Source: Elusimicrobiota bacterium (GTDB lineage: Bacteria; Elusimicrobiota; Elusimicrobia; UBA1565). From it: a stretch of DNA of 22,232 bases. Shown one piece after another: positions 10,840 to 18,656 of this stretch. Within the stretch, counting starts at the first letter, position 1. Every line of letters begins with the position of its first letter. The notes beneath the pieces are model-generated. The model had not been told where the DNA came from. It did not search any database and worked only from the letters and a program-made list of their open reading frames with translations. The translations under genes were made by a program, and so were the position numbers. The stretch covers positions 1-22,232 of the forward strand of contig JBDREN010000157.1 of assembly GCA_043819795.1 (NCBI GenBank), given 5' to 3'.

Positions 10840-12704
10840 TGCGCGGCCGGCTCGAGCTCACTCTGCGGGCGGTCGTCCTGGGGATCGTGCTGTCGGTCGT
10901 CATGGCGGCGGCCAACGTCTACCTCGGGCTGAAGGCCGGGATGACGGTCTCGGCCTCGATCCCGGCCGCGGTCATGGCCATGGCCATCCTGCGGATGCTG
11001 TCCAAGAGCGGCTCCATCTACGAGAGCAACCTCGTGCAGACTGCGGCCTCGGCCGGCGAGTCGCTCGCGGCCGGGATCATCTTCACGATCCCGGCCCTCG
11101 TCATCGCCGGCGTCTGGAAGACCTTCGACTTCTGGGTCACCTCGCTGATCGCGCTGACGGGCGGCCTTCTGGGGATCCTTTTCATGATCCCAATGCGCAA
11201 GGTCTTCGTCGTCGACAGCAAGGAGCTGGCCTTCCCCGAGGGGGTGGCCTGCGCCGAGGTCCTGCGCGCCGGGGAGAAGGGCCAGGAGACCGGCGCCGCG
11301 CTGGTCTTCCGCGCCATCGCCGTCGGCGGGATCTTCAAGTTCCTCGCGTCCTTCGCGGGGATCTTCAAGGCGACGGTGGAGTGGGCGACCGCGGTCGGCG
11401 CGCGGGTGTTCTACTTCGGGTGCGACGTGTCGCCGGCGCTGGTCGCGGTCGGCTACATCGTCGGCCTGCCGATCGCGGTCCTCATCTTCCTGGGCGGCGC
11501 CGGGGCGTGGCTGGTCGGCATCCCGCTCTTGGGCGGCGCGCACGGGGACGCGCTCGAGCACGCGGGGGCGCTCTGGAGCACGCAGGTCCGCTACGTGGGC
11601 GTGGGCGCGATGGTCGTCGGCGGCATCGACTCCATCTACAAGGTGCGGGGCGGCCTCAGATCGGCGTTCCGCGAGATGCGGAGCCATCTCCGGGGCGGCA
11701 AGAAGGACGTGGCCGAGACCGAGAGGAACATCGGCGGGAACGCGATCCTGGCGTTGACCGCGGTCTGCGTGCTGTCCATCCTGGGGATCTACTACCACCT
11801 GACCAAGGACTTCGGCGAGACGCTCATCGCGGCCGCGGCCATGCTGGTGCTCTCGTTCTTCTTCACGGCGGTGGCCAGCTATATCGTGGGGCTCGTCGGC
11901 AACTCGAACAGCCCGGTCTCGGGGATGACGATCACGGCCGTCCTGGCGACGGCCGGGCTTCTCTACGTGATGGGCTACACCGGAGCCCCCGGCATCCTGG
12001 CCACGCTCGGGGTGGCGGGCGTCGTCTGCTGCGTGGCCTGCACCTCCGGCGACGTCTGCAACGACCTCAAGACGGGGGCGCTCATCGGGGCCTCCCCGCG
12101 CAGCCAGCAGATCGTGCAGATCGTGGGGGTCGTGGTCGCCGCGTTCGTTCTCGCGCCGGTCCTCATCGCCATGCATGAGGGTTCTCTGCTCATGGGCGGG
12201 ACCGGCATCGGGGGCCGGGACTATCCGGCCCCGCAGGCCAATCTCTTCGCGAACCTGGCGAAGGGGTTCTTCACCGAGGGCCGGCTGCCCTGGGACATGG
12301 TGGCGATAGGCGTGATCATCGGGGCGCTGATCCTGATCGTGGACTGGGTCCTCAAGACCCGCCGCTCGGCCTTCCGCATGCACCTGATGCCCGTGGCCGT
12401 CGGCATCTACCTGCCGTTCGGGCTGGCCGTCCCCATCCTCATTGGGGGGCTCCTGGCCCACTGGGTCGGCCTGGGCTCCAAGAAGGAGCGGAAGGACGCG
12501 AACCTAAAGCGCGGCGTGCTGGTGTCTTCCGGGATAATCGCTGGAGAGTCGCTCGTGGGCGTGGGCTTGGCCTTCCTGGCTTACTTCGGGATCAGGTCCT
12601 GGGGCCTTGGCGGGAGTTGGTCCAGCTCGACCTTGGACGTCCTGTCAACAGGCGGCTTGGTCGGGGTCTGCTGGCTGTTCTATCGGTGGTCATTTAAGAA
12701 GTAA
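10839..12704 (+). CDS. Oligopeptide transporter, OPT superfamily
   Basis: TGATG overlap with lemA. ELTLRAVVLG, NVYLGLKAGMTVSASIPAAV, ESNLVQTAASAGES, FPEGVACAEVL, NSPVSGMTI, DLKTG, APQA, AVGIYLP; many TM helices. 621 aa. Confidence 0.95.
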   Translation: MRGRLELTLRAVVLGIVLSVVMAAANVYLGLKAGMTVSASIPAAVMAMAILRMLSKSGSIYESNLVQTAASAGESLAAGIIFTIPALVIAGVWKTFDFWVTSLIALTGGLLGILFMIPMRKVFVVDSKELAFPEGVACAEVLRAGEKGQETGAALVFRAIAVGGIFKFLASFAGIFKATVEWATAVGARVFYFGCDVSPALVAVGYIVGLPIAVLIFLGGAGAWLVGIPLLGGAHGDALEHAGALWSTQVRYVGVGAMVVGGIDSIYKVRGGLRSAFREMRSHLRGGKKDVAETERNIGGNAILALTAVCVLSILGIYYHLTKDFGETLIAAAAMLVLSFFFTAVASYIVGLVGNSNSPVSGMTITAVLATAGLLYVMGYTGAPGILATLGVAGVVCCVACTSGDVCNDLKTGALIGASPRSQQIVQIVGVVVAAFVLAPVLIAMHEGSLLMGGTGIGGRDYPAPQANLFANLAKGFFTEGRLPWDMVAIGVIIGALILIVDWVLKTRRSAFRMHLMPVAVGIYLPFGLAVPILIGGLLAHWVGLGSKKERKDANLKRGVLVSSGIIAGESLVGVGLAFLAYFGIRSWGLGGSWSSSTLDVLSTGGLVGVCWLFYRWSFKK

Positions 12705-12860
12705 AAAACAGTACTTTTCCCTATTTCTGTCGCCCACACGGCCCTTCCGGAGAGGTTTGCCGGGATAATCGTGGCGGCGGTGGGCTTCTTCATATTTCAA
12801 GACAATAGTGTTGGAATTTACGTCATAATTTACATTCCGCGTTGATATACCCACCCCCCT

Positions 12861-13005
12861 TCCCCCCTCGGAGGGGGGATTCGGCCCCCTGAACAACGCG
12901 CGACCCCTCCCCGTGGGGGAGGGGCGCGGGCACCACCCAAAACAACGCGCATTCCTCCCCGCGGGGAAGGAACGCGGGCAGCCCCGCGGGGGAGGGGTCG
13001 CGGGG
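12861..13005. repeat. Second cluster of REP-like palindromes (same family as 3181-3318)
   Basis: Stem 12861-12868/12872-12879. Units AACAACGCGC-stem-CGCGGGCA at 12892-12932 and 12941-12980. 12982-13002 is an inverted partial copy of the first unit. Confidence 0.8.
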
Positions 13006-13132
13006 TTGACCACGGTCAATGAGTATTCTCAATGGCGGAAGTCAACGGAGAGCGTTGAGCAATGTCATGATTGGAAATCAAGTTTTCTCGTTGATCGATG
13101 TCATCAAGGCCGGGGCGCGCGATGCGTACAAT
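13006..13132 (+). promoter_or_regulatory. Array of FNR/CRP-like boxes plus a -10 element upstream of the repeat-peptide gene
   Basis: TTGAC-cacg-GTCAA 13006-13019, ATGAG-tatt-CTCAA 13019-13032, ATGGC-ggaa-GTCAA 13032-13045, TTGAG-caat-GTCAT 13055-13068, TGATT-ggaa-ATCAA 13068-13081, TTGAT-cgat-GTCAT 13091-13104. TACAAT at 13127-13132 with no recognisable -35. Confidence 0.6.
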
Positions 13133-13173
13133 AGATACAGAAGTTCGATACAAAGAATTTAAGGAGAACGTAG

Positions 13174-13479
13174 ATGATCGAGTTCCTGATGATCCTGACC
13201 CTGAGCCCCCTGAGCGGGCAGCCCGCGCTTCTGGCGCAGTTCCAGCCTTGCGTTTGGCCGAACACGTGCAACGTCGAGGAGACCGTCGAGGTCGCGCAGT
13301 TCCAGCCTTGCGTTTGGCCGAACACCTGCAAAGCCGAGGAACCCGTCGAGGTCGCGCAGTTCCGGCCTTGCGTTTGGCCGAACAAGTGCCGCGCGGAGGA
13401 GCCGGTGCAGCTCGCGCAGTTCCAGCCTTGCGTTTGGCCGAACACCTGCCGCGAGGATCAGCAGAGCGTATTGCTTTAG
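13174..13479 (+). CDS. Small multi-cassette peptide: 20-aa hydrophobic leader plus 4x AQF(Q/R)PCVWPN(T/K)C cores; putative multi-core precursor peptide
   Basis: RBS AAGGAG 13161-13166, ATG 13174, TAG 13477-13479, terminator downstream. Exact 60-nt period. Linker substitutions are often synonymous or conservative in this frame, which supports coding. Confidence 0.85.
   Translation: MIEFLMILTLSPLSGQPALLAQFQPCVWPNTCNVEETVEVAQFQPCVWPNTCKAEEPVEVAQFRPCVWPNKCRAEEPVQLAQFQPCVWPNTCREDQQSVLL
13234..13449 (+). repeat. Coding tandem repeat, 4 copies, 60-nt period
   Basis: The 31-nt core GCGCAGTTCCAGCCTTGCGTTTGGCCGAACA starts at 13234, 13294, 13354 (one A>G) and 13414. Confidence 0.97.
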
Positions 13480-13511
13480 CGCCGACACCAAGCCGGTCGT
13501 TTCCGTGTCCC

Positions 13512-13541
13512 GAAGCCCCCTGTCCCGGGGGCTTCCTCTTT
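13512..13541 (+). terminator. Intrinsic terminator after the peptide gene
   Basis: Perfect 9-bp stem GAAGCCCCC (13512-13520)/GGGGGCTTC (13527-13535), followed by CTCTTT. Confidence 0.7.
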
Positions 13542-13545
13542 GCAC

Positions 13546-13574
13546 TTGCGCGCCCGGAGGGGCGCTGTTATTAT
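13546..13574 (+). promoter_or_regulatory. Sigma70-type promoter for pcm (probably leaderless)
   Basis: TTGCGC (13546-13551)-17 nt-TATTAT (13569-13574) with extended TG at 13566-13567; 7 nt separate it from GTG 13582. Confidence 0.65.
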
Positions 13575-13581
13575 AGGGTAG

Positions 13582-14358
13582 GTGGCATCCGGAGCTTATC
13601 TCGCACTGGCCTTGATTGTCCTTTGCGGCGCCTGTGGGCCCCGGCAGGACGCCCCCGACATGGAAGCGCCGGCCGCCACGGGGGACCGTTTCCGGAGGGC
13701 GCGGGAGGCCATGGTGGACGACATCGCGAACTACTCGGCGATGCACCGCATCAAGGATCCGAAGGTCCTCGCCGCGATGCGCAAGGTGCCTCGAGACGCG
13801 TTCGTGCCCGAGGACCTCAAGCTCCACGCCTACAGCGACCGGCCGCTCCCGATCGGCGAGGGGCAGACGATCTCCCAGCCCTTCATCGTCGCCTACATGA
13901 CCGACGCGCTCGAGCTCAGGCCCGGGGAGAAGGTCCTCGAGATCGGCACCGGCTCGGGCTATCAGGCCGCGATCCTGGCCGAGGTCGTGGACGAGGTCTA
14001 CACGATCGAGATCGTCGAGACGCTGGGCCGCCGGGCTGAGCGGACCCTCAAGGACCTCGGCTACGACAAGGTCCGGGTGCGGATCGGCGACGGCTACCGC
14101 GGCTGGCCGGAGGCCGCTCCGTTCGACGCGGTCATCGTGACCTGCGCGCCCGACCACATCCCCCAGCCCCTGGTGGACCAGCTCAGGCTAGGCGGACGCA
14201 TGATGATCCCGGTCGGGGAAGAGCTCTCGGGGCGGTCCTGGGCCGCCCAGGAGCTGGTCCTGGTGCGCAAGACCGAGAAAGGGATGCGGCGCGAGAAGAA
14301 GATGGACGTCCGCTTCGTCCCCATGACCGGCGAGGCCCAGGCCCCGCGGGAACGCTGA
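13582..14358 (+). CDS. pcm: Protein-L-isoaspartate O-methyltransferase with N-terminal hydrophobic/lipoprotein-like extension
   Basis: VPRDAFV, LPIGEGQTISQPFIVA, VLEIGTGSGYQAA, GDGYRGWPEAAPFDAVIVT, GGRMMIPVG, VRFVPM. The start codon is uncertain (GTG 13582 versus downstream ATGs). Confidence 0.95.
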   Translation: MASGAYLALALIVLCGACGPRQDAPDMEAPAATGDRFRRAREAMVDDIANYSAMHRIKDPKVLAAMRKVPRDAFVPEDLKLHAYSDRPLPIGEGQTISQPFIVAYMTDALELRPGEKVLEIGTGSGYQAAILAEVVDEVYTIEIVETLGRRAERTLKDLGYDKVRVRIGDGYRGWPEAAPFDAVIVTCAPDHIPQPLVDQLRLGGRMMIPVGEELSGRSWAAQELVLVRKTEKGMRREKKMDVRFVPMTGEAQAPRER

Positions 14359-14414
14359 TCCTTCTTCTTCCTCCGGTGTCCCAACCTGAGCGGCGTTAGA
14401 GACGTATGGAGGGG

Positions 14415-14443
14415 TTGCGGACCGGGCCGCATACCGGTACCAT
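14415..14443 (+). promoter_or_regulatory. Probable promoter for the large membrane protein gene
   Basis: TTGCGG (14415-14420)-17 nt-TACCAT (14438-14443), upstream of RBS GGAGG 14466-14470. Confidence 0.5.
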
Positions 14444-14474
14444 CATGGGTGGTTGTGTCCTTACCGGAGGAACC

Positions 14475-17400
14475 ATGAACACGCGCAGGATCGCCACGAC
14501 TCTCGCCTTGATCCTCGCCGCATCGCTGGCGGCCACGGGGGCGCAAGCCAAGCGGCTCGCCAAAGAGGACGTCCCCGAGCCGCTCAAGCCCTGGATCGGA
14601 TGGGTGCTGGCCGGCCACGAGGTCGAGCAATGCCCGTTCCTGCAGGGCTCGCCCGGTCGGCGGATGTGCGCCTGGCCCGCGGGCCTGAAGCTCGAGTTGC
14701 ACGGCAAGGGAGGCCGGTTCACCCAGCGCTGGAAGGTCTACGAGGAGTCCTGGATCGCACTACCCGGCGAGGCCAAGCGCTGGCCGCAGGACGTGCGGGT
14801 CGGCGACGCTCCGGCCTCGGTGATCCTGCGCGAGGATCGGCCGCAGCTGCGCCTCAAGGACGGCAAGCACACCGTCACGGGCTCCTTCCGGTGGGACTCC
14901 CTGCCGGAGCTGCTTCAGATACCTCCCGAGACCGGTCTCTTGGCGTTGACGGTCCGGGGAAAGCCGGTCCGCTTCCCGGTGCGCGACGAGTCGGGCCGCC
15001 TGTGGCTGCAGAAGGCGCAGGCAGATTCCAAGGAGAAGGCGCGCCTCGAGGTGGACGTCCACCGCCGCGTCACCGACGACATCCCGCTGCGGCTCGATAC
15101 GCACATCCGCCTAAAGGTCTCGGGCAAGAGCCGGGAGGTGGTCCTGGGGAAGGCGCTTCCCGAGGGCTTCGCGCCCCTGTCCCTGACCGGGCCCTTGCCC
15201 GCGCGCGTGGAGCCGGACGGGCGCCTGCGGGTACAGGTCAGGGCCGGCGACTGGATATTGGAGCTCGCCGCGCGGCACGAGGGCCCGGCGGACGAGCTGA
15301 CCCCTCCCGAGCCCCGCGGACCTTGGGACGCGGAGGAGGTCTGGGTGTTCGAGGCCCAGCCCGGGCTGCGGCTCGTCTCGGTCGAGGGCCCGCCGCAGTT
15401 GGACCCTCAGCAGACCGAGCTTCCCGGCCAATGGCGGGGGTTCCCCGCCTATCTGATGCGGCCGGGGGACGCCATGAAGCTGGTCGAGCGCCGGCGCGGC
15501 GACGCGGACCCGGCCCCGGACCGTCTCAGCCTCGACCGCACTTTCTGGCTGGATTTCGCCGGCAGGGGCTTCACGGTCCGGGACAGGGTCAGCGGGGACC
15601 TCAACCGGAGCTGGCGCCTCGAGATGGCGCCGCGCACGGAGCTGGGACGGGCGGCCGTGGGCGGCCGCGACCAATTCATCACGGCGCTCGAGCCCGACGG
15701 CCCCGCGGGGATCGAGGTCCGCCAGGGCCGCCTCGAACTCGACGCCGACAGCAGGATCGAGCGTCCCCTGCGCAAGGTCCCGGCGGTGAGCTGGAACGCG
15801 GACTTTGACAATGTCAACGGGCGGCTCAACCTGCCGCCGGGATGGCGGCTCATCCACGCGTTCGGCGTGGACAAGGCGTCGCCGACCTGGGTGACCCTCT
15901 GGACCCTCCTCGACATCTTCCTGGTGCTGATCATCGGCCTGTCGGTCGGCAAGCTGTGGGGGCGGCGCTGGGGCGCGCTGGCCTTGGTCACGGCGGCCCT
16001 CACCTGGCACGAGCCCGGCGCGCCGCGCTGGGTATGGCTCTTTCTGCTCGCGGGCGAGGCGCTCGTGCGCGCGCTGCCGGAAGGAAGGTTCCTGAAGGCC
16101 ATGAAGGCGTATCGCGGAATCGTCTGGGCGGCTCTGCTCGTGATCGCGGTGCCGTTCCTCGTGCTGCAGGTCAAGCAGGCGCTCTATCCGCAGCTCGAGA
16201 GGCGGCAGGAGGGCGTTCGCCCCTTGGCGTCGGCCTCCAAAAGCGAGGCCGAGGCTTTCGATGAGCGCTTCAGGGGCAAGGGCCGAGCGGTCATGCGCAA
16301 GGCCATGGTTGGCGGCATGCTCGCGGAACAGGCCATGGACTTCGACGCCGCGCCGGAGGCTCCGTTCGAGGCTGAAGGAAAGGAGTTCGCGATGAGGCCC
16401 TCCAGTCTCATGGCCGCCGGTGGGGCCGCCCCGGCGCCGAGGCCGCTGTTCGCTCTCGACCCGAATTCCCAGGTCTCGACCGGACCCGGCCTTCCCACCT
16501 GGGACTGGCGCGCGGTGTCTCTTTCCTGGCGCGGGCCGGTCAAGTCCGGCCAGCAGTTGCGGTTTCTGCTGATCTGCCCGGGAATGAACTTCGCGCTCAC
16601 CTTACTCCGGGTCGCGCTCGTCGTCGTGTTCGCGCTGCTGGTCTTCGGGCTCCCGATCGACAGGTGGGGTCGCGACCTTCGCTCCCGCGGCGGCTGGGCC
16701 AAGGCCGCCGCGTGGCTCTTCCCGGCCCTCTTGATCATCTTCGCGCAGGCCGGCGCGGCGCGCGCCGAGCCCGCGGGGTCGCAGGGCTTTCCCACGCCGG
16801 AGATGCTCAATGAGCTGCGCGGGCGCCTGCTCGAGAATCCCGAATGCGCGCCGCGGTGCGCGGAGAGCCCGAGGCTGCGTTTGGAGGTCTCCGGGAACAC
16901 ACTCCGCGTGCGCGTGGAGGTGAACGTCGCGGCCGAGACGGCGGTGCCTTTGCCGGGCGGGGTGAAGCAGTGGGTCCCGACGCGAGTACTCCTGGGCGAG
17001 AGCTCCGCGCCCGGGCTCAGGCGCACCCAAGACGGCATGCTCTGGATACCCCTCCCCAAGGGGTCCCACCAGGTGCTGCTCGAAGGTCCTTTGCCGGATC
17101 GCGACACCGTGCAGGTGCCGCTCCCTCTCAAGCCTCGGCGCGTGGTGGCGAAGGTGTCGGGCTGGATCCTCGACGGGATCCGCGAGGACGGGGTGCCGGA
17201 GGGGAACCTCCAGCTCTCCCGGGTGCGCGGGGCCAAGGGCCGCCCCGGAAGCGGGCTCGAGCCTGGGGCGCTTCCGCCCTTCGTGCGGGTCGAGCGCACG
17301 CTGGTATTGGGGCTCTCCTGGCGGGCCGATACGCGCGTCATCCGGCTCACGCCGGTTGGGACGCCCATCGTGGTCCCGGTGCCGCTCATCGCGGGCGAGT

Positions 17401-18656
17401 CGGTGACCACTGCCGACGTGCGGGTCGCCAAAGGAGAGGTCCTGGTCAACATGGGCCCCCACGACGCGACGGTCCGATGGACGTCGACGCTCAAGGAGAG
17501 CGACAGCATAACGCTCGAGGCGCCCGACAAGGTCCCCTGGGTGGAGAAATGGCGCCTGGACGTGGGTCCCCTCTGGCACGCGGAGCCGGAGGGCATACCG
17601 ACCGTCCACTCGGCGGGCAGGCCTCAGGCCAAGATCCGCGAGTGGCGGCCCTGGCCCGGCGAAGCGGTCACGGTCGCGCTCACCCGTCCTGAAGGCGTCG
17701 GAGGGCGGACCCTCACTATCGACCACGCCGCGCTCACGATGAACCCGGGGCTGCGCGCGAGCGACGCGACGCTCGCCTTGAAGCTGCGCAGCAGCAGGGG
17801 CGGGCAGCATACGCTCACGCTTCCCGAGGGCGCGGAGCTCCAGCTGGTCCAGATCGACAACAGGGCTCAGCCGGTCCGCCAGGAGGACCGCAAGGTGACC
17901 CTCCCCATCCAGCCGGGGAGCCACTCCGCGCAGCTCGACTGGCGGCAGGACGGGGGGATCAGCCTCTTCTATCGCACGCCGGAGGTGGATCTCGGGGCCG
18001 AGAGCGTCAACGCCGACCTCACCGTCAAGATGCCCGCGGAACGGTGGACGCTACTGCTCGGCGGGCCGAGGCTGGGGCCGGCGGTCCTGTTCTGGAGCCT
18101 CTTGGCGGTCTTCCTGCTCGTGAGCGTGGGCCTGGGGCGGTTGCGACTGACGCCCCTTCGCTGGATCCACTGGTTCTTGCTGTCCTTGGGGCTCACGCAG
18201 GTCCCCCTGACGATCTCGGGGACCGTGGCCGTCTGGCTGGTGGCGCTCGGCTGGCGCAAGGAGCATGCTCCCAAGCGCCCATGGGCGTTCGACGGCCTGC
18301 AGGCTTCGTTGGGGCTGCTGACCCTGCTGGCTTTCGCCTGCCTGTTCATGTCCATCAAGCGCGGGCTGCTCGGCCTGCCGGACATGCAGATCGGGGGCAA
18401 CGGCTCGAGCTCGCAGCTTCTGTTGTGGTACCAGGACCGTTCCGGCGAGGTCCTGCCGCGCGCCTGGGCGTTGAGCGTCCCGCTGATGCTCTACCGGGCG
18501 GCGATGCTGGCCTGGGCGCTGTGGCTGGCGTCGTCGATGCTCAAGTGGATCAAGTGGGGCTGGGCCTGCTTCACGGCCGGCGGGATGTGGCGTCCGGTGA
18601 GGGCCAATCCCAAGGCCAAGGAGAAGCCGGCGGTCCCGAAGCCGCCCGCCCCATAG
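14475..18656 (+). CDS. Large uncharacterised exported/multi-pass membrane protein with two homologous halves
   Basis: RBS GGAGG, ATG 14475, signal peptide ending AQA. 1393 aa with strong GC3 bias. Two beta-rich soluble regions, each followed by TM bundles. Confidence 0.85.
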   Translation: MNTRRIATTLALILAASLAATGAQAKRLAKEDVPEPLKPWIGWVLAGHEVEQCPFLQGSPGRRMCAWPAGLKLELHGKGGRFTQRWKVYEESWIALPGEAKRWPQDVRVGDAPASVILREDRPQLRLKDGKHTVTGSFRWDSLPELLQIPPETGLLALTVRGKPVRFPVRDESGRLWLQKAQADSKEKARLEVDVHRRVTDDIPLRLDTHIRLKVSGKSREVVLGKALPEGFAPLSLTGPLPARVEPDGRLRVQVRAGDWILELAARHEGPADELTPPEPRGPWDAEEVWVFEAQPGLRLVSVEGPPQLDPQQTELPGQWRGFPAYLMRPGDAMKLVERRRGDADPAPDRLSLDRTFWLDFAGRGFTVRDRVSGDLNRSWRLEMAPRTELGRAAVGGRDQFITALEPDGPAGIEVRQGRLELDADSRIERPLRKVPAVSWNADFDNVNGRLNLPPGWRLIHAFGVDKASPTWVTLWTLLDIFLVLIIGLSVGKLWGRRWGALALVTAALTWHEPGAPRWVWLFLLAGEALVRALPEGRFLKAMKAYRGIVWAALLVIAVPFLVLQVKQALYPQLERRQEGVRPLASASKSEAEAFDERFRGKGRAVMRKAMVGGMLAEQAMDFDAAPEAPFEAEGKEFAMRPSSLMAAGGAAPAPRPLFALDPNSQVSTGPGLPTWDWRAVSLSWRGPVKSGQQLRFLLICPGMNFALTLLRVALVVVFALLVFGLPIDRWGRDLRSRGGWAKAAAWLFPALLIIFAQAGAARAEPAGSQGFPTPEMLNELRGRLLENPECAPRCAESPRLRLEVSGNTLRVRVEVNVAAETAVPLPGGVKQWVPTRVLLGESSAPGLRRTQDGMLWIPLPKGSHQVLLEGPLPDRDTVQVPLPLKPRRVVAKVSGWILDGIREDGVPEGNLQLSRVRGAKGRPGSGLEPGALPPFVRVERTLVLGLSWRADTRVIRLTPVGTPIVVPVPLIAGESVTTADVRVAKGEVLVNMGPHDATVRWTSTLKESDSITLEAPDKVPWVEKWRLDVGPLWHAEPEGIPTVHSAGRPQAKIREWRPWPGEAVTVALTRPEGVGGRTLTIDHAALTMNPGLRASDATLALKLRSSRGGQHTLTLPEGAELQLVQIDNRAQPVRQEDRKVTLPIQPGSHSAQLDWRQDGGISLFYRTPEVDLGAESVNADLTVKMPAERWTLLLGGPRLGPAVLFWSLLAVFLLVSVGLGRLRLTPLRWIHWFLLSLGLTQVPLTISGTVAVWLVALGWRKEHAPKRPWAFDGLQASLGLLTLLAFACLFMSIKRGLLGLPDMQIGGNGSSSQLLLWYQDRSGEVLPRAWALSVPLMLYRAAMLAWALWLASSMLKWIKWGWACFTAGGMWRPVRANPKAKEKPAVPKPPAP

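Follow-up and report, generated by a model that had tools for sequence, protein, structure and literature searches.

A gene at positions 13174-13479 (+ strand) of the window, the whole stretch of 22,232 nucleotides analysed here, encodes a four-core precursor of 101 residues whose relatives form what is, to judge by sequence, an undescribed peptide family confined to one branch of free-living Elusimicrobia. The reading preferred here, with a probability of roughly 0.4, is that the product is a secreted peptide signal, an exported, unmodified disulfide-loop ligand that phages have copied to steer their hosts. The part of this reading that concerns manufacture, namely Sec export with a mature N-terminal glutamine, a disulfide as the sole modification and class II activation by an adjacent FNR-like protein, is quite probable. 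A more elaborate version is doubtful as a whole: in it a multi-copy disulfide-loop pheromone and an entire secretome would both be driven by an FNR-like regulator gated by oxygen, and several unrelated phages would each have acquired the single-core form on their own. Peptide signaling common to bacteria and phages is established in Firmicutes (RRNPP, arbitrium), and an oxygen-gated version shared by bacteria and phages in a diderm phylum would, if true, be new. Even under the rival explanations there would be an undescribed bioactive peptide of 12-14 residues, the mature form of which is marked by the phage copies so that it can be synthesized and tested. The promoter also brings to light an uncharacterized regulon of secreted proteins in free-living Elusimicrobia, a group predicted in parts of the text of 10.1101/765248 to respire oxygen and nitrate.

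The peptide gene and its relatives

The open reading frame to which an earlier note on this DNA had drawn attention was confirmed, as were the four cores claimed for it, by a repeat finder, pattern matches and the homologue family. A 60-bp tandem repeat occupies 13234-13449 (3.6 copies, 87% matches, score 327; Tandem Repeats Finder), and the cores, all on the + strand, are at 13234-13269 (core 1, A|QFQPCVWPNTC), 13294-13329 (core 2), 13354-13389 (core 3, AQFRPCVWPNKC) and 13414-13449 (core 4). The ribosome-binding site ascribed to the gene is present as a Shine-Dalgarno AAGGAG at 13161-13166 (+). For the terminator there is a terminator-like hairpin (13517-13531, +) with a pyrimidine tail extending to 13541, but alone it is weak, as 12000-14500 has five such sites against 2.0 ± 1.3 in shuffled sequence. 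The linkers are acidic, as had been described, in the window gene only; those of the family are mostly near-neutral (net charge 0, -1 or +1 in 381 of 470), range from 5 to 46 residues and are rich in A, V, P, E and T. The window gene, which has a promoter to itself, is a relocated secondary copy, of a kind whose neighbors are unrelated; a three-core paralogue is on contig C112 of the same genome. Also in the window, at 14406-18656 (+), is a gene for a signal-bearing membrane protein of 1416 residues with no match in Pfam or NCBIfam.

The earlier note was right to see a new family, conserved in its core and variable in its linkers; it did not notice the FNR-type regulon or the phage copies. Homologues number 38 at 90% clustering and 229 representatives at 50% identity, and no characterized repeat family matched in Pfam, NCBIfam, PHROGs or PDB. 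Two weak PDB matches (E 0.03 and 0.07), both to disulfide-hairpin peptides of scorpions, were taken to reflect chance cysteine spacing, and the ESM Atlas search gave nothing usable. Fifty-six of 57 genome loci are titled Elusimicrobiota and the other is labeled only ‘bacterium’. In a sample of the phylum 42 of 401 genomes have a match, and 39 of these belong to the order of the window, for which the sample had 59 further genomes; a weak match containing stops (G274) was left out of the count. At the level of the class a DNA pattern matches 63 of 251 genomes, one of them (G269) by chance, with none in seven families. The literature text searched has no occurrence of CVWPN, QPCVWP or RPCVWP, and the accessible portions of papers on Elusimicrobia peptides, FNR, quorum sensing and RiPPs have nothing on the family. 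Elusimicrobia are likewise absent from the accessible main text of a survey of MNIO enzymes, the supplements of which, with their small-ORF lists, could bear on novelty (PMC12452194).

Copy number varies from two to five cores per host gene. Among 252 distinct sequences, a set that includes close relatives and was gathered with a multi-core query that disfavors single cores, two cores occur in 79, three in 133, four in 35 and five in 5, and peptide genes are in tandem in 14 of 59 loci. Of the 1472 cysteines in this set 1444 are within cores, the consensus of which is A(75%)-Q(72)-[FVI](91)-x-[PT](93)-C-V(84)-W(86)-P-N(77)-x-C. Conservation of the core holds across 235 cores, where C-x2-P-x2-C, W and N are retained while synonymous codons vary. 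Loop position 3 is aromatic (W, Y or F) and position 5 is N, K, R or H, with W-P-R in 9%.

Phage copies and the minimal unit

Pattern scans of viral contigs, once reading frames had been taken into account, yielded five distinct peptide genes on six contigs, and a sixth gene, with two cores (L138/L139), is on two phage-like metagenome contigs. Matches dropped as chance at that step were 7 of 11, 4 of 8 and 1 of 3, and four records from annotated phages at E 4-6 were judged non-relatives. Four of the phage genes have a single core, and in each a basic, hydrophobic signal of canonical type ends in A-x-A and is followed by 12-14 residues: PARA|QFQPCVWPNICAQ in L141, PAAA|QFKPCVWPNTCAQ in L147, RAHA|QFRPCVWPYTCG in L148 and NARA|NVEPCVWPNHCITK in L122, which is the same as L126. 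The residue immediately after A-x-A is Q in three and N in one. Cleavage by signal peptidase I follows the A-x-A rule and, since these single cores are directly behind a Sec signal ending in that way, one core is likely to be the unit, with its mature start at Q and a length of 12-14 residues.

A further phage gene, L142, has three cores. Terminase genes flank L141, L147, L148 and L142, and because of their presence these contigs are taken to be phage DNA. Packaging genes are all that the viral loci have in common; no shared neighbor is fit to be a receptor or enzyme of their own, and the viral copies would therefore rely on host machinery. The host-type box described below is retained in three of the six viral or phage-like genes, in one case with the exact 9-nt tandem spacing, and is absent from L122, L142 and L139. 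The second core of one phage-like two-core gene is without A-Q. A terminase search of 251 genomes of the class, made to find the phage host, gave 28 matches, all of them outside the peptide-bearing families.

Predicted export, cleavage and disulfide

What had been regarded as a RiPP-type leader looks like a Sec signal instead. Residues 1-21 of the window gene (13174-13236, +), ending L-L-A, are predicted to be a Sec-type signal by comparison with homologues that have canonical signals and the same A|Q end, and this signal is without the usual basic N-region. By a hydrophobicity heuristic the N-termini are hydrophobic in all 78 host genes scored, with a leader of 20-21 residues in 53 of them, and just 24 of the 252 sequences have K or R within the first five residues. 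The canonical and host-type N-termini would be interchangeable, since L251 is a chromosomal member that has a canonical signal together with a three-box promoter.

One of three alternatives offered in the earlier note was cleavage at A|Q. For the first site this is strongly supported by the four single-core phage genes, and for the inner cores it would be by extension: their release is plausible but not required, as A-Q stands before 172 of 252 first cores and, among inner cores, before 302 of 470. Another of the alternatives, an unprocessed, membrane-tethered metal or redox protein, is conceivable for the host forms and does not fit phage forms of 12-14 residues. DsbA-type proteins, which are relevant to disulfides, are present in the genome to which the window belongs.

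Promoter and regulator

The gene does have its own promoter, but it is of the activator type with an FNR-like box, and no consensus sigma-70 promoter was found. A box scan revealed an array of FNR-type boxes at 13006-13081 (+), with starts at 13006, 13019, 13032 and 13055, and a further half-site ending TCAA (13078-13081, +) that is 9 nt before the promoter-proximal box, TTGATCGATGTCAT, at 13091-13104 (+). A -10 hexamer, TACAAT, is 22 nt after this box at 13127-13132 (+). Across the family the -10 hexamer follows the proximal box by 22-24 nt, which would center this box near -41.5, the position of a class II activator. This array is the highest-scoring box cluster in the 4.99-Mb genome, where the two best clusters are those of the two peptide genes. 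For 78 host genes (three further ORFs had no start called) a strict TTGAY-N4-RTCAA box precedes 50, against 0.02 in base-shuffled controls, and two boxes 9 nt apart with a -10 hexamer 21-24 nt further on precede 73, the proximal box again being centered near -41.5 as in members of an FNR-type regulon. Between the OPT gene and the box array of the window, at 12887-13002, are GC-rich imperfect inverted and direct repeats with 30-nt arms that may be REP-like or a terminator.

A CRP/FNR gene is upstream of the peptide gene in 35 of 59 loci (within 300 nt in 32 of 59) and has a TPR gene in front of it; at these linked loci the genes that come next, on the opposite strand, are housekeeping nucleoside genes. 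The FNR-like regulator is present in 40 of 40 peptide-positive genomes and in 15 of 20 that are peptide-negative; the latter 15 have neither the peptide gene nor the boxes behind it. At one locus (L115, genome G317) a three-box promoter behind the FNR-like gene is intact with no peptide ORF next to it, and the peptide gene of that genome is elsewhere. In all 63 orthologue sequences the regulator has an invariant C-x2-C-x5-C and a fourth cysteine, the position of which we take to differ from that in E. coli, and it scores 60 against the NCBIfam Fnr model, below the cut-off of 228. The box equals the consensus TTGACnnnnGTCAA of the FNR-like HcpR in the parts of PMC545781 and PMC1274295 that describe it; HcpR and DNR are, in the latter, without the FNR cysteine motif. 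As the regulator linked to the peptide has four invariant cysteines, it may perhaps be an FNR-type Fe-S oxygen sensor. The likeness to FNR and HcpR regulons as set out in those parts extends to the TTGAC/T-N4-A/GTCAA box, to an activator site upstream of the -10 and to a regulator gene beside its main target, but unlike in those regulons the tandem-box targets here are secreted proteins of no recognized function.

Partner genes and known peptide systems

The remaining alternative of the earlier note, a maturase encoded in trans, was not upheld, as none is adjacent or co-occurring, and profiling for radical SAM, YcaO, DUF692 and glutaminyl cyclase genes gave no linkage to the peptide. DUF692 (MNIO, PF05114) is in 12 of 40 peptide-positive versus 7 of 20 peptide-negative genomes and is absent among the neighbors in 59 loci, which sets the peptide apart from MNIO RiPPs. 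Glutaminyl cyclase (PF05096) is in 1 of 61 genomes only, so any pyroglutamate would have to arise spontaneously or by another type of enzyme. GrrM over its cut-off is in 0 of 61 genomes and a WgkB-type synthase in 0 of 41, WprB having been tested through this relative. There is no YcaO in the window's own genome (90% complete), and among the conserved neighbors none was recognized as a YcaO, PatA/G protease or ATP-grasp ligase, the genes that a cyanobactin or microviridin type would have linked to it. A scan for CxxxCx[FYHM]C in the ORFs of 59 loci gave one match, not an evident radical SAM protein. The own genome has 35 radical-SAM-like ORFs, and the eight that were classified are HxsB/HxsC4, heme-related or unassigned, with no cyclophane synthase. 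These genome counts, drawn from non-independent kin and incomplete genomes, argue against a dedicated maturase without proving its absence. Two His-Xaa-Ser radical SAM clusters (HxsB over cut-off, HxsC4-like) are on contigs C32 and C96 of the own genome (G000), and a DUF692 gene with a partner-like ORF and no evident precursor alongside is at C126:48776-50432 (L060:8777-10433).

Two neighbors in the window were considered and set aside. The downstream pcm scores as a housekeeping PIMT (242.9 versus a cut-off of 188) and not as FxLD (148 versus 320), and is adjacent in only 3 of 59 loci. The OPT transporter gene, considered as that of a dedicated importer, adjoins the peptide gene at 3 of 59 loci; since it occurs in all 40 peptide-positive genomes and also in 14 of 20 peptide-negative ones, it is uninformative. 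An exported TPR protein (L001:10449-11675, - strand; 408 residues, Pfam TPRs, signal-like N-terminus) is conserved, its gene lying one place ahead of that for the FNR-like regulator in most of the order's genomes, and is present in 37 of 40 peptide-positive and 9 of 20 peptide-negative genomes. It is only a candidate receptor, absent from the window locus and from the phage loci fetched, and a complex prediction of a two-core fragment, the TPR protein and a regulator dimer scored 0.00, which is no evidence either way.

The peptide fails the tests for membership of RRNPP, MNIO, cyclophane and YcaO-type systems, but it has features of several. As with Phr, NprX and AimP of the RRNPP and arbitrium systems, covered in parts of PMC10075063 and PMC5199041 (see also PMC6458997), the product would be a small propeptide, predicted to leave by Sec, whose short mature peptide is C-terminal; duplication has taken place both within genes and of entire genes, host and phage alike carry it, and the ancestral locus has a TPR gene. 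The size of the window product, 101 residues, compares with 10-100 for RRNPP propeptides, and canonical signals are found in phage and some host members. Unlike RRNPP peptides it has diderm hosts, a disulfide-loop core that hardly diversifies and no sequence similarity. No adjacent cytoplasmic TPR receptor of 250-500 residues was found: the TPR protein here is itself predicted to be exported, and the FNR-like gene lies between its gene and that of the peptide, and the phage copies, in contrast to RRNPP phage systems, are without an adjacent receptor. With the cyclophane RiPP precursor WprA, which in the part of PMC11851443 consulted has three WPR repeats 18 residues apart, it shares a multi-core precursor and repeated W-P-X at a spacing of 18-20 residues (also PMC12957482, in part). 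The aromatic-X-X repeats of three-residue cyclophanes (Wpr, Wgk, Grr) are thus present and the adjacent radical SAM synthase is not. W-P-N is dominant instead, a cysteine pair flanks it, there is an export signal, and the adjacent WprB and WprC that WprA needs (PMC11851443, same part) or a protease are lacking. Bufferins and oxazolins, in parts of PMC12452194, likewise have a signal peptide and Cys-containing repeats, and some cores here end K-C-G; differences from them are C-x5-C with W-P-N, FNR-type control and no linkage to or co-occurrence with MNIO, DUF2063 or DoxX.

What the peptide may do

In the mechanism proposed, the FNR-like protein would activate the peptide gene from the class II site, perhaps sensing low oxygen through an Fe-S cluster. 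The precursor would be exported by Sec and cut by signal peptidase at A|Q, and its two cysteines would oxidize to close a seven-residue disulfide loop (C-x5-C). Inner cores could be freed by proteolysis or stay as a multivalent string, in either case raising the dose. The core might then bind a host envelope receptor and contribute to the cell state that goes with synthesis of the co-regulated secreted proteins, and phages, some with the host regulatory box, would carry a single core to forge the signal.

The signal reading is favored because the gene is behind a regulator, is amplified within genes and by gene duplication as are the Phr/NprX autoinducers (PMC5199041, in part), and has a possible variant allele in another genus, and because phages carry the peptide with neither receptor nor enzyme. 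Retention of non-cysteine residues (W 86%, V 84%, N 77%, F/V/I 91% at -3) points to a ligand read by a protein. There are also points against a signal. The core is nearly invariant across several families, unlike Phr-type signals, which diversify (PMC5199041, in part). The regulator resembles an Fe-S sensor and not a peptide receptor, other CRP/FNR paralogues of the genome could read similar boxes, and the regulon persists without the peptide, several regulator-positive, peptide-negative genomes keeping tandem boxes for other secreted proteins. Neither receptor nor response has been identified, and the TPR protein occurs in peptide-negative genomes too (9 of 20). Most host N-termini have no basic residue and may be cut poorly, A-Q is absent from 168 of 470 inner cores, and three of the phage or phage-like genes (L122, L142 and L139) have no box.

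A core so little changed across families would suit a conserved target, and it is conceivable, if rather unlikely, that the exported loop blocks a conserved envelope protein such as a phage receptor, pilus, porin or periplasmic protease, with hosts making a multivalent form at low oxygen and phages relying on one core to achieve superinfection exclusion or lysis control. Inhibitors are commonly built as tandem repeats of loops constrained by disulfides; A-Q would not be needed at every inner core, and the phage genes do stand alone, often inserted against the direction of their neighbors. No target has been identified, however, searches of Pfam, NCBIfam, PHROGs and PDB showed no resemblance to a known inhibitor or exclusion protein, and the position of the gene right behind a regulator is left unexplained. 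A further explanation is that the peptide acts as an unmodified dithiol in the periplasm, either by binding Cu(I) or another soft metal or by buffering thiol or NO stress at low oxygen, in the manner of a bufferin without its enzyme. The confinement of nearly all cysteines to cores and the high copy number suit a stoichiometric role, the box matches the HcpR/FNR-like consensus, and in the own genome similar boxes stand upstream of what are, by recognition, sat-aprBA, an operon for NO reductase, and genes for a NifU-like protein and a ferredoxin. Yet His and Met are scarce, F/V, V, W, P and N are strictly conserved beyond the cysteines, DUF692 does not go with the peptide in the counts above, no metal-handling genes are adjacent and a single phage core would add little buffering, and this explanation is unlikely.

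Less likely still is that host forms stay uncut and membrane-tethered, as small regulators of the MgrB type or a surface repeat, with only the phage forms released. K and R are missing from the first five residues of 228 of the 252 sequences, and the AlphaFold model of the precursor (pLDDT 53, pTM 0.15) has an N-terminal helix at residues 3-9 and is otherwise disordered; but the hydrophobic stretch of about 8-10 residues is short for an anchor, A-Q is before most first cores, and chromosomal members with canonical cleavable signals exist. The least probable of the explanations is a RiPP modified in trans, through a Trp-to-X3 cyclophane on W-P-N/K/R as in WprA or through MNIO cysteine heterocycles. 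It draws on the aromatic residue at loop position 3 with N, K, R or H at position 5, as in three-residue cyclophane motifs, on the repeats of WprA, and on the DUF692 gene without obvious precursor and the many radical-SAM-like ORFs of the own genome. It is opposed by the absence of an evident radical SAM in 59 loci, by the counts for GrrM, WgkB-type synthase and YcaO given above, by the identities of the eight radical SAM proteins tested and of pcm, and by the phage forms, which leave no space for a leader.

Other genes under tandem boxes

The tandem-box pattern has 98 matches in 25 genomes versus 3 for a reversed control. Promoters were examined in the loci returned, in 20 more regions and in two small searches, which make up part of the 98, and among 39 distinct ones with a -10 hexamer 9 precede the peptide and 27 precede signal-like ORFs (background, 29% of 3370 ORFs of the own genome). 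The other three, uncalled by the script, precede another peptide gene, a signal-only ORF of 29 residues and a transporter-like ORF. Apart from the peptide, tandem-box promoters appear to drive almost only uncharacterized secreted proteins. In two genomes without the standard peptide (G276 and G298) the same promoter precedes a 53-residue gene (L219:1032-1190, - strand, and L234) whose product is a signal followed by QDPGPPPCAINHTCH, with Q...C-x5-C, and which is a possible variant allele or functional replacement of the standard peptide.

Targets of tandem boxes include a DUF333 protein and two exported families, neither of which was found in the own genome (90% complete). A proline-rich family of 170-210 residues (L153, L155, L180, L181, L184, L195, L211, L215, L217 and L224) has an L..FDG motif in many members and a C-terminal tail resembling TLPE.DL..E[LI]G, possibly a sorting motif. 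The other, of about 250 residues with four conserved cysteines (L218, L216, L222, L223, L189, L167, L210, L212 and L214), folds at pLDDT 79 with no Pfam match and no clear structural match (best Z 5.2). A signal-only ORF of 29 residues behind a three-box promoter at L160 seems to be what truncation has left of a proline-rich family gene; a pyruvate oxidoreductase-like gene lies downstream of it. Single boxes at the promoter-proximal position in relatives (25 loci) precede genes that we take, by recognition, to be those for 2-oxoacid oxidoreductase, cytochrome oxidase, succinate dehydrogenase/fumarate reductase and PEP carboxykinase; in the own genome they precede the sulfur, NO-reductase, NifU-like and ferredoxin genes already named. 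At C222:50785-62736 (L062) of the latter, two FNR-type boxes are before sat in a cluster of sat-aprBA and DsrMK-like genes, so labeled by recognition, which suggests that the genome is that of an Elusimicrobium with dissimilatory sulfur metabolism.
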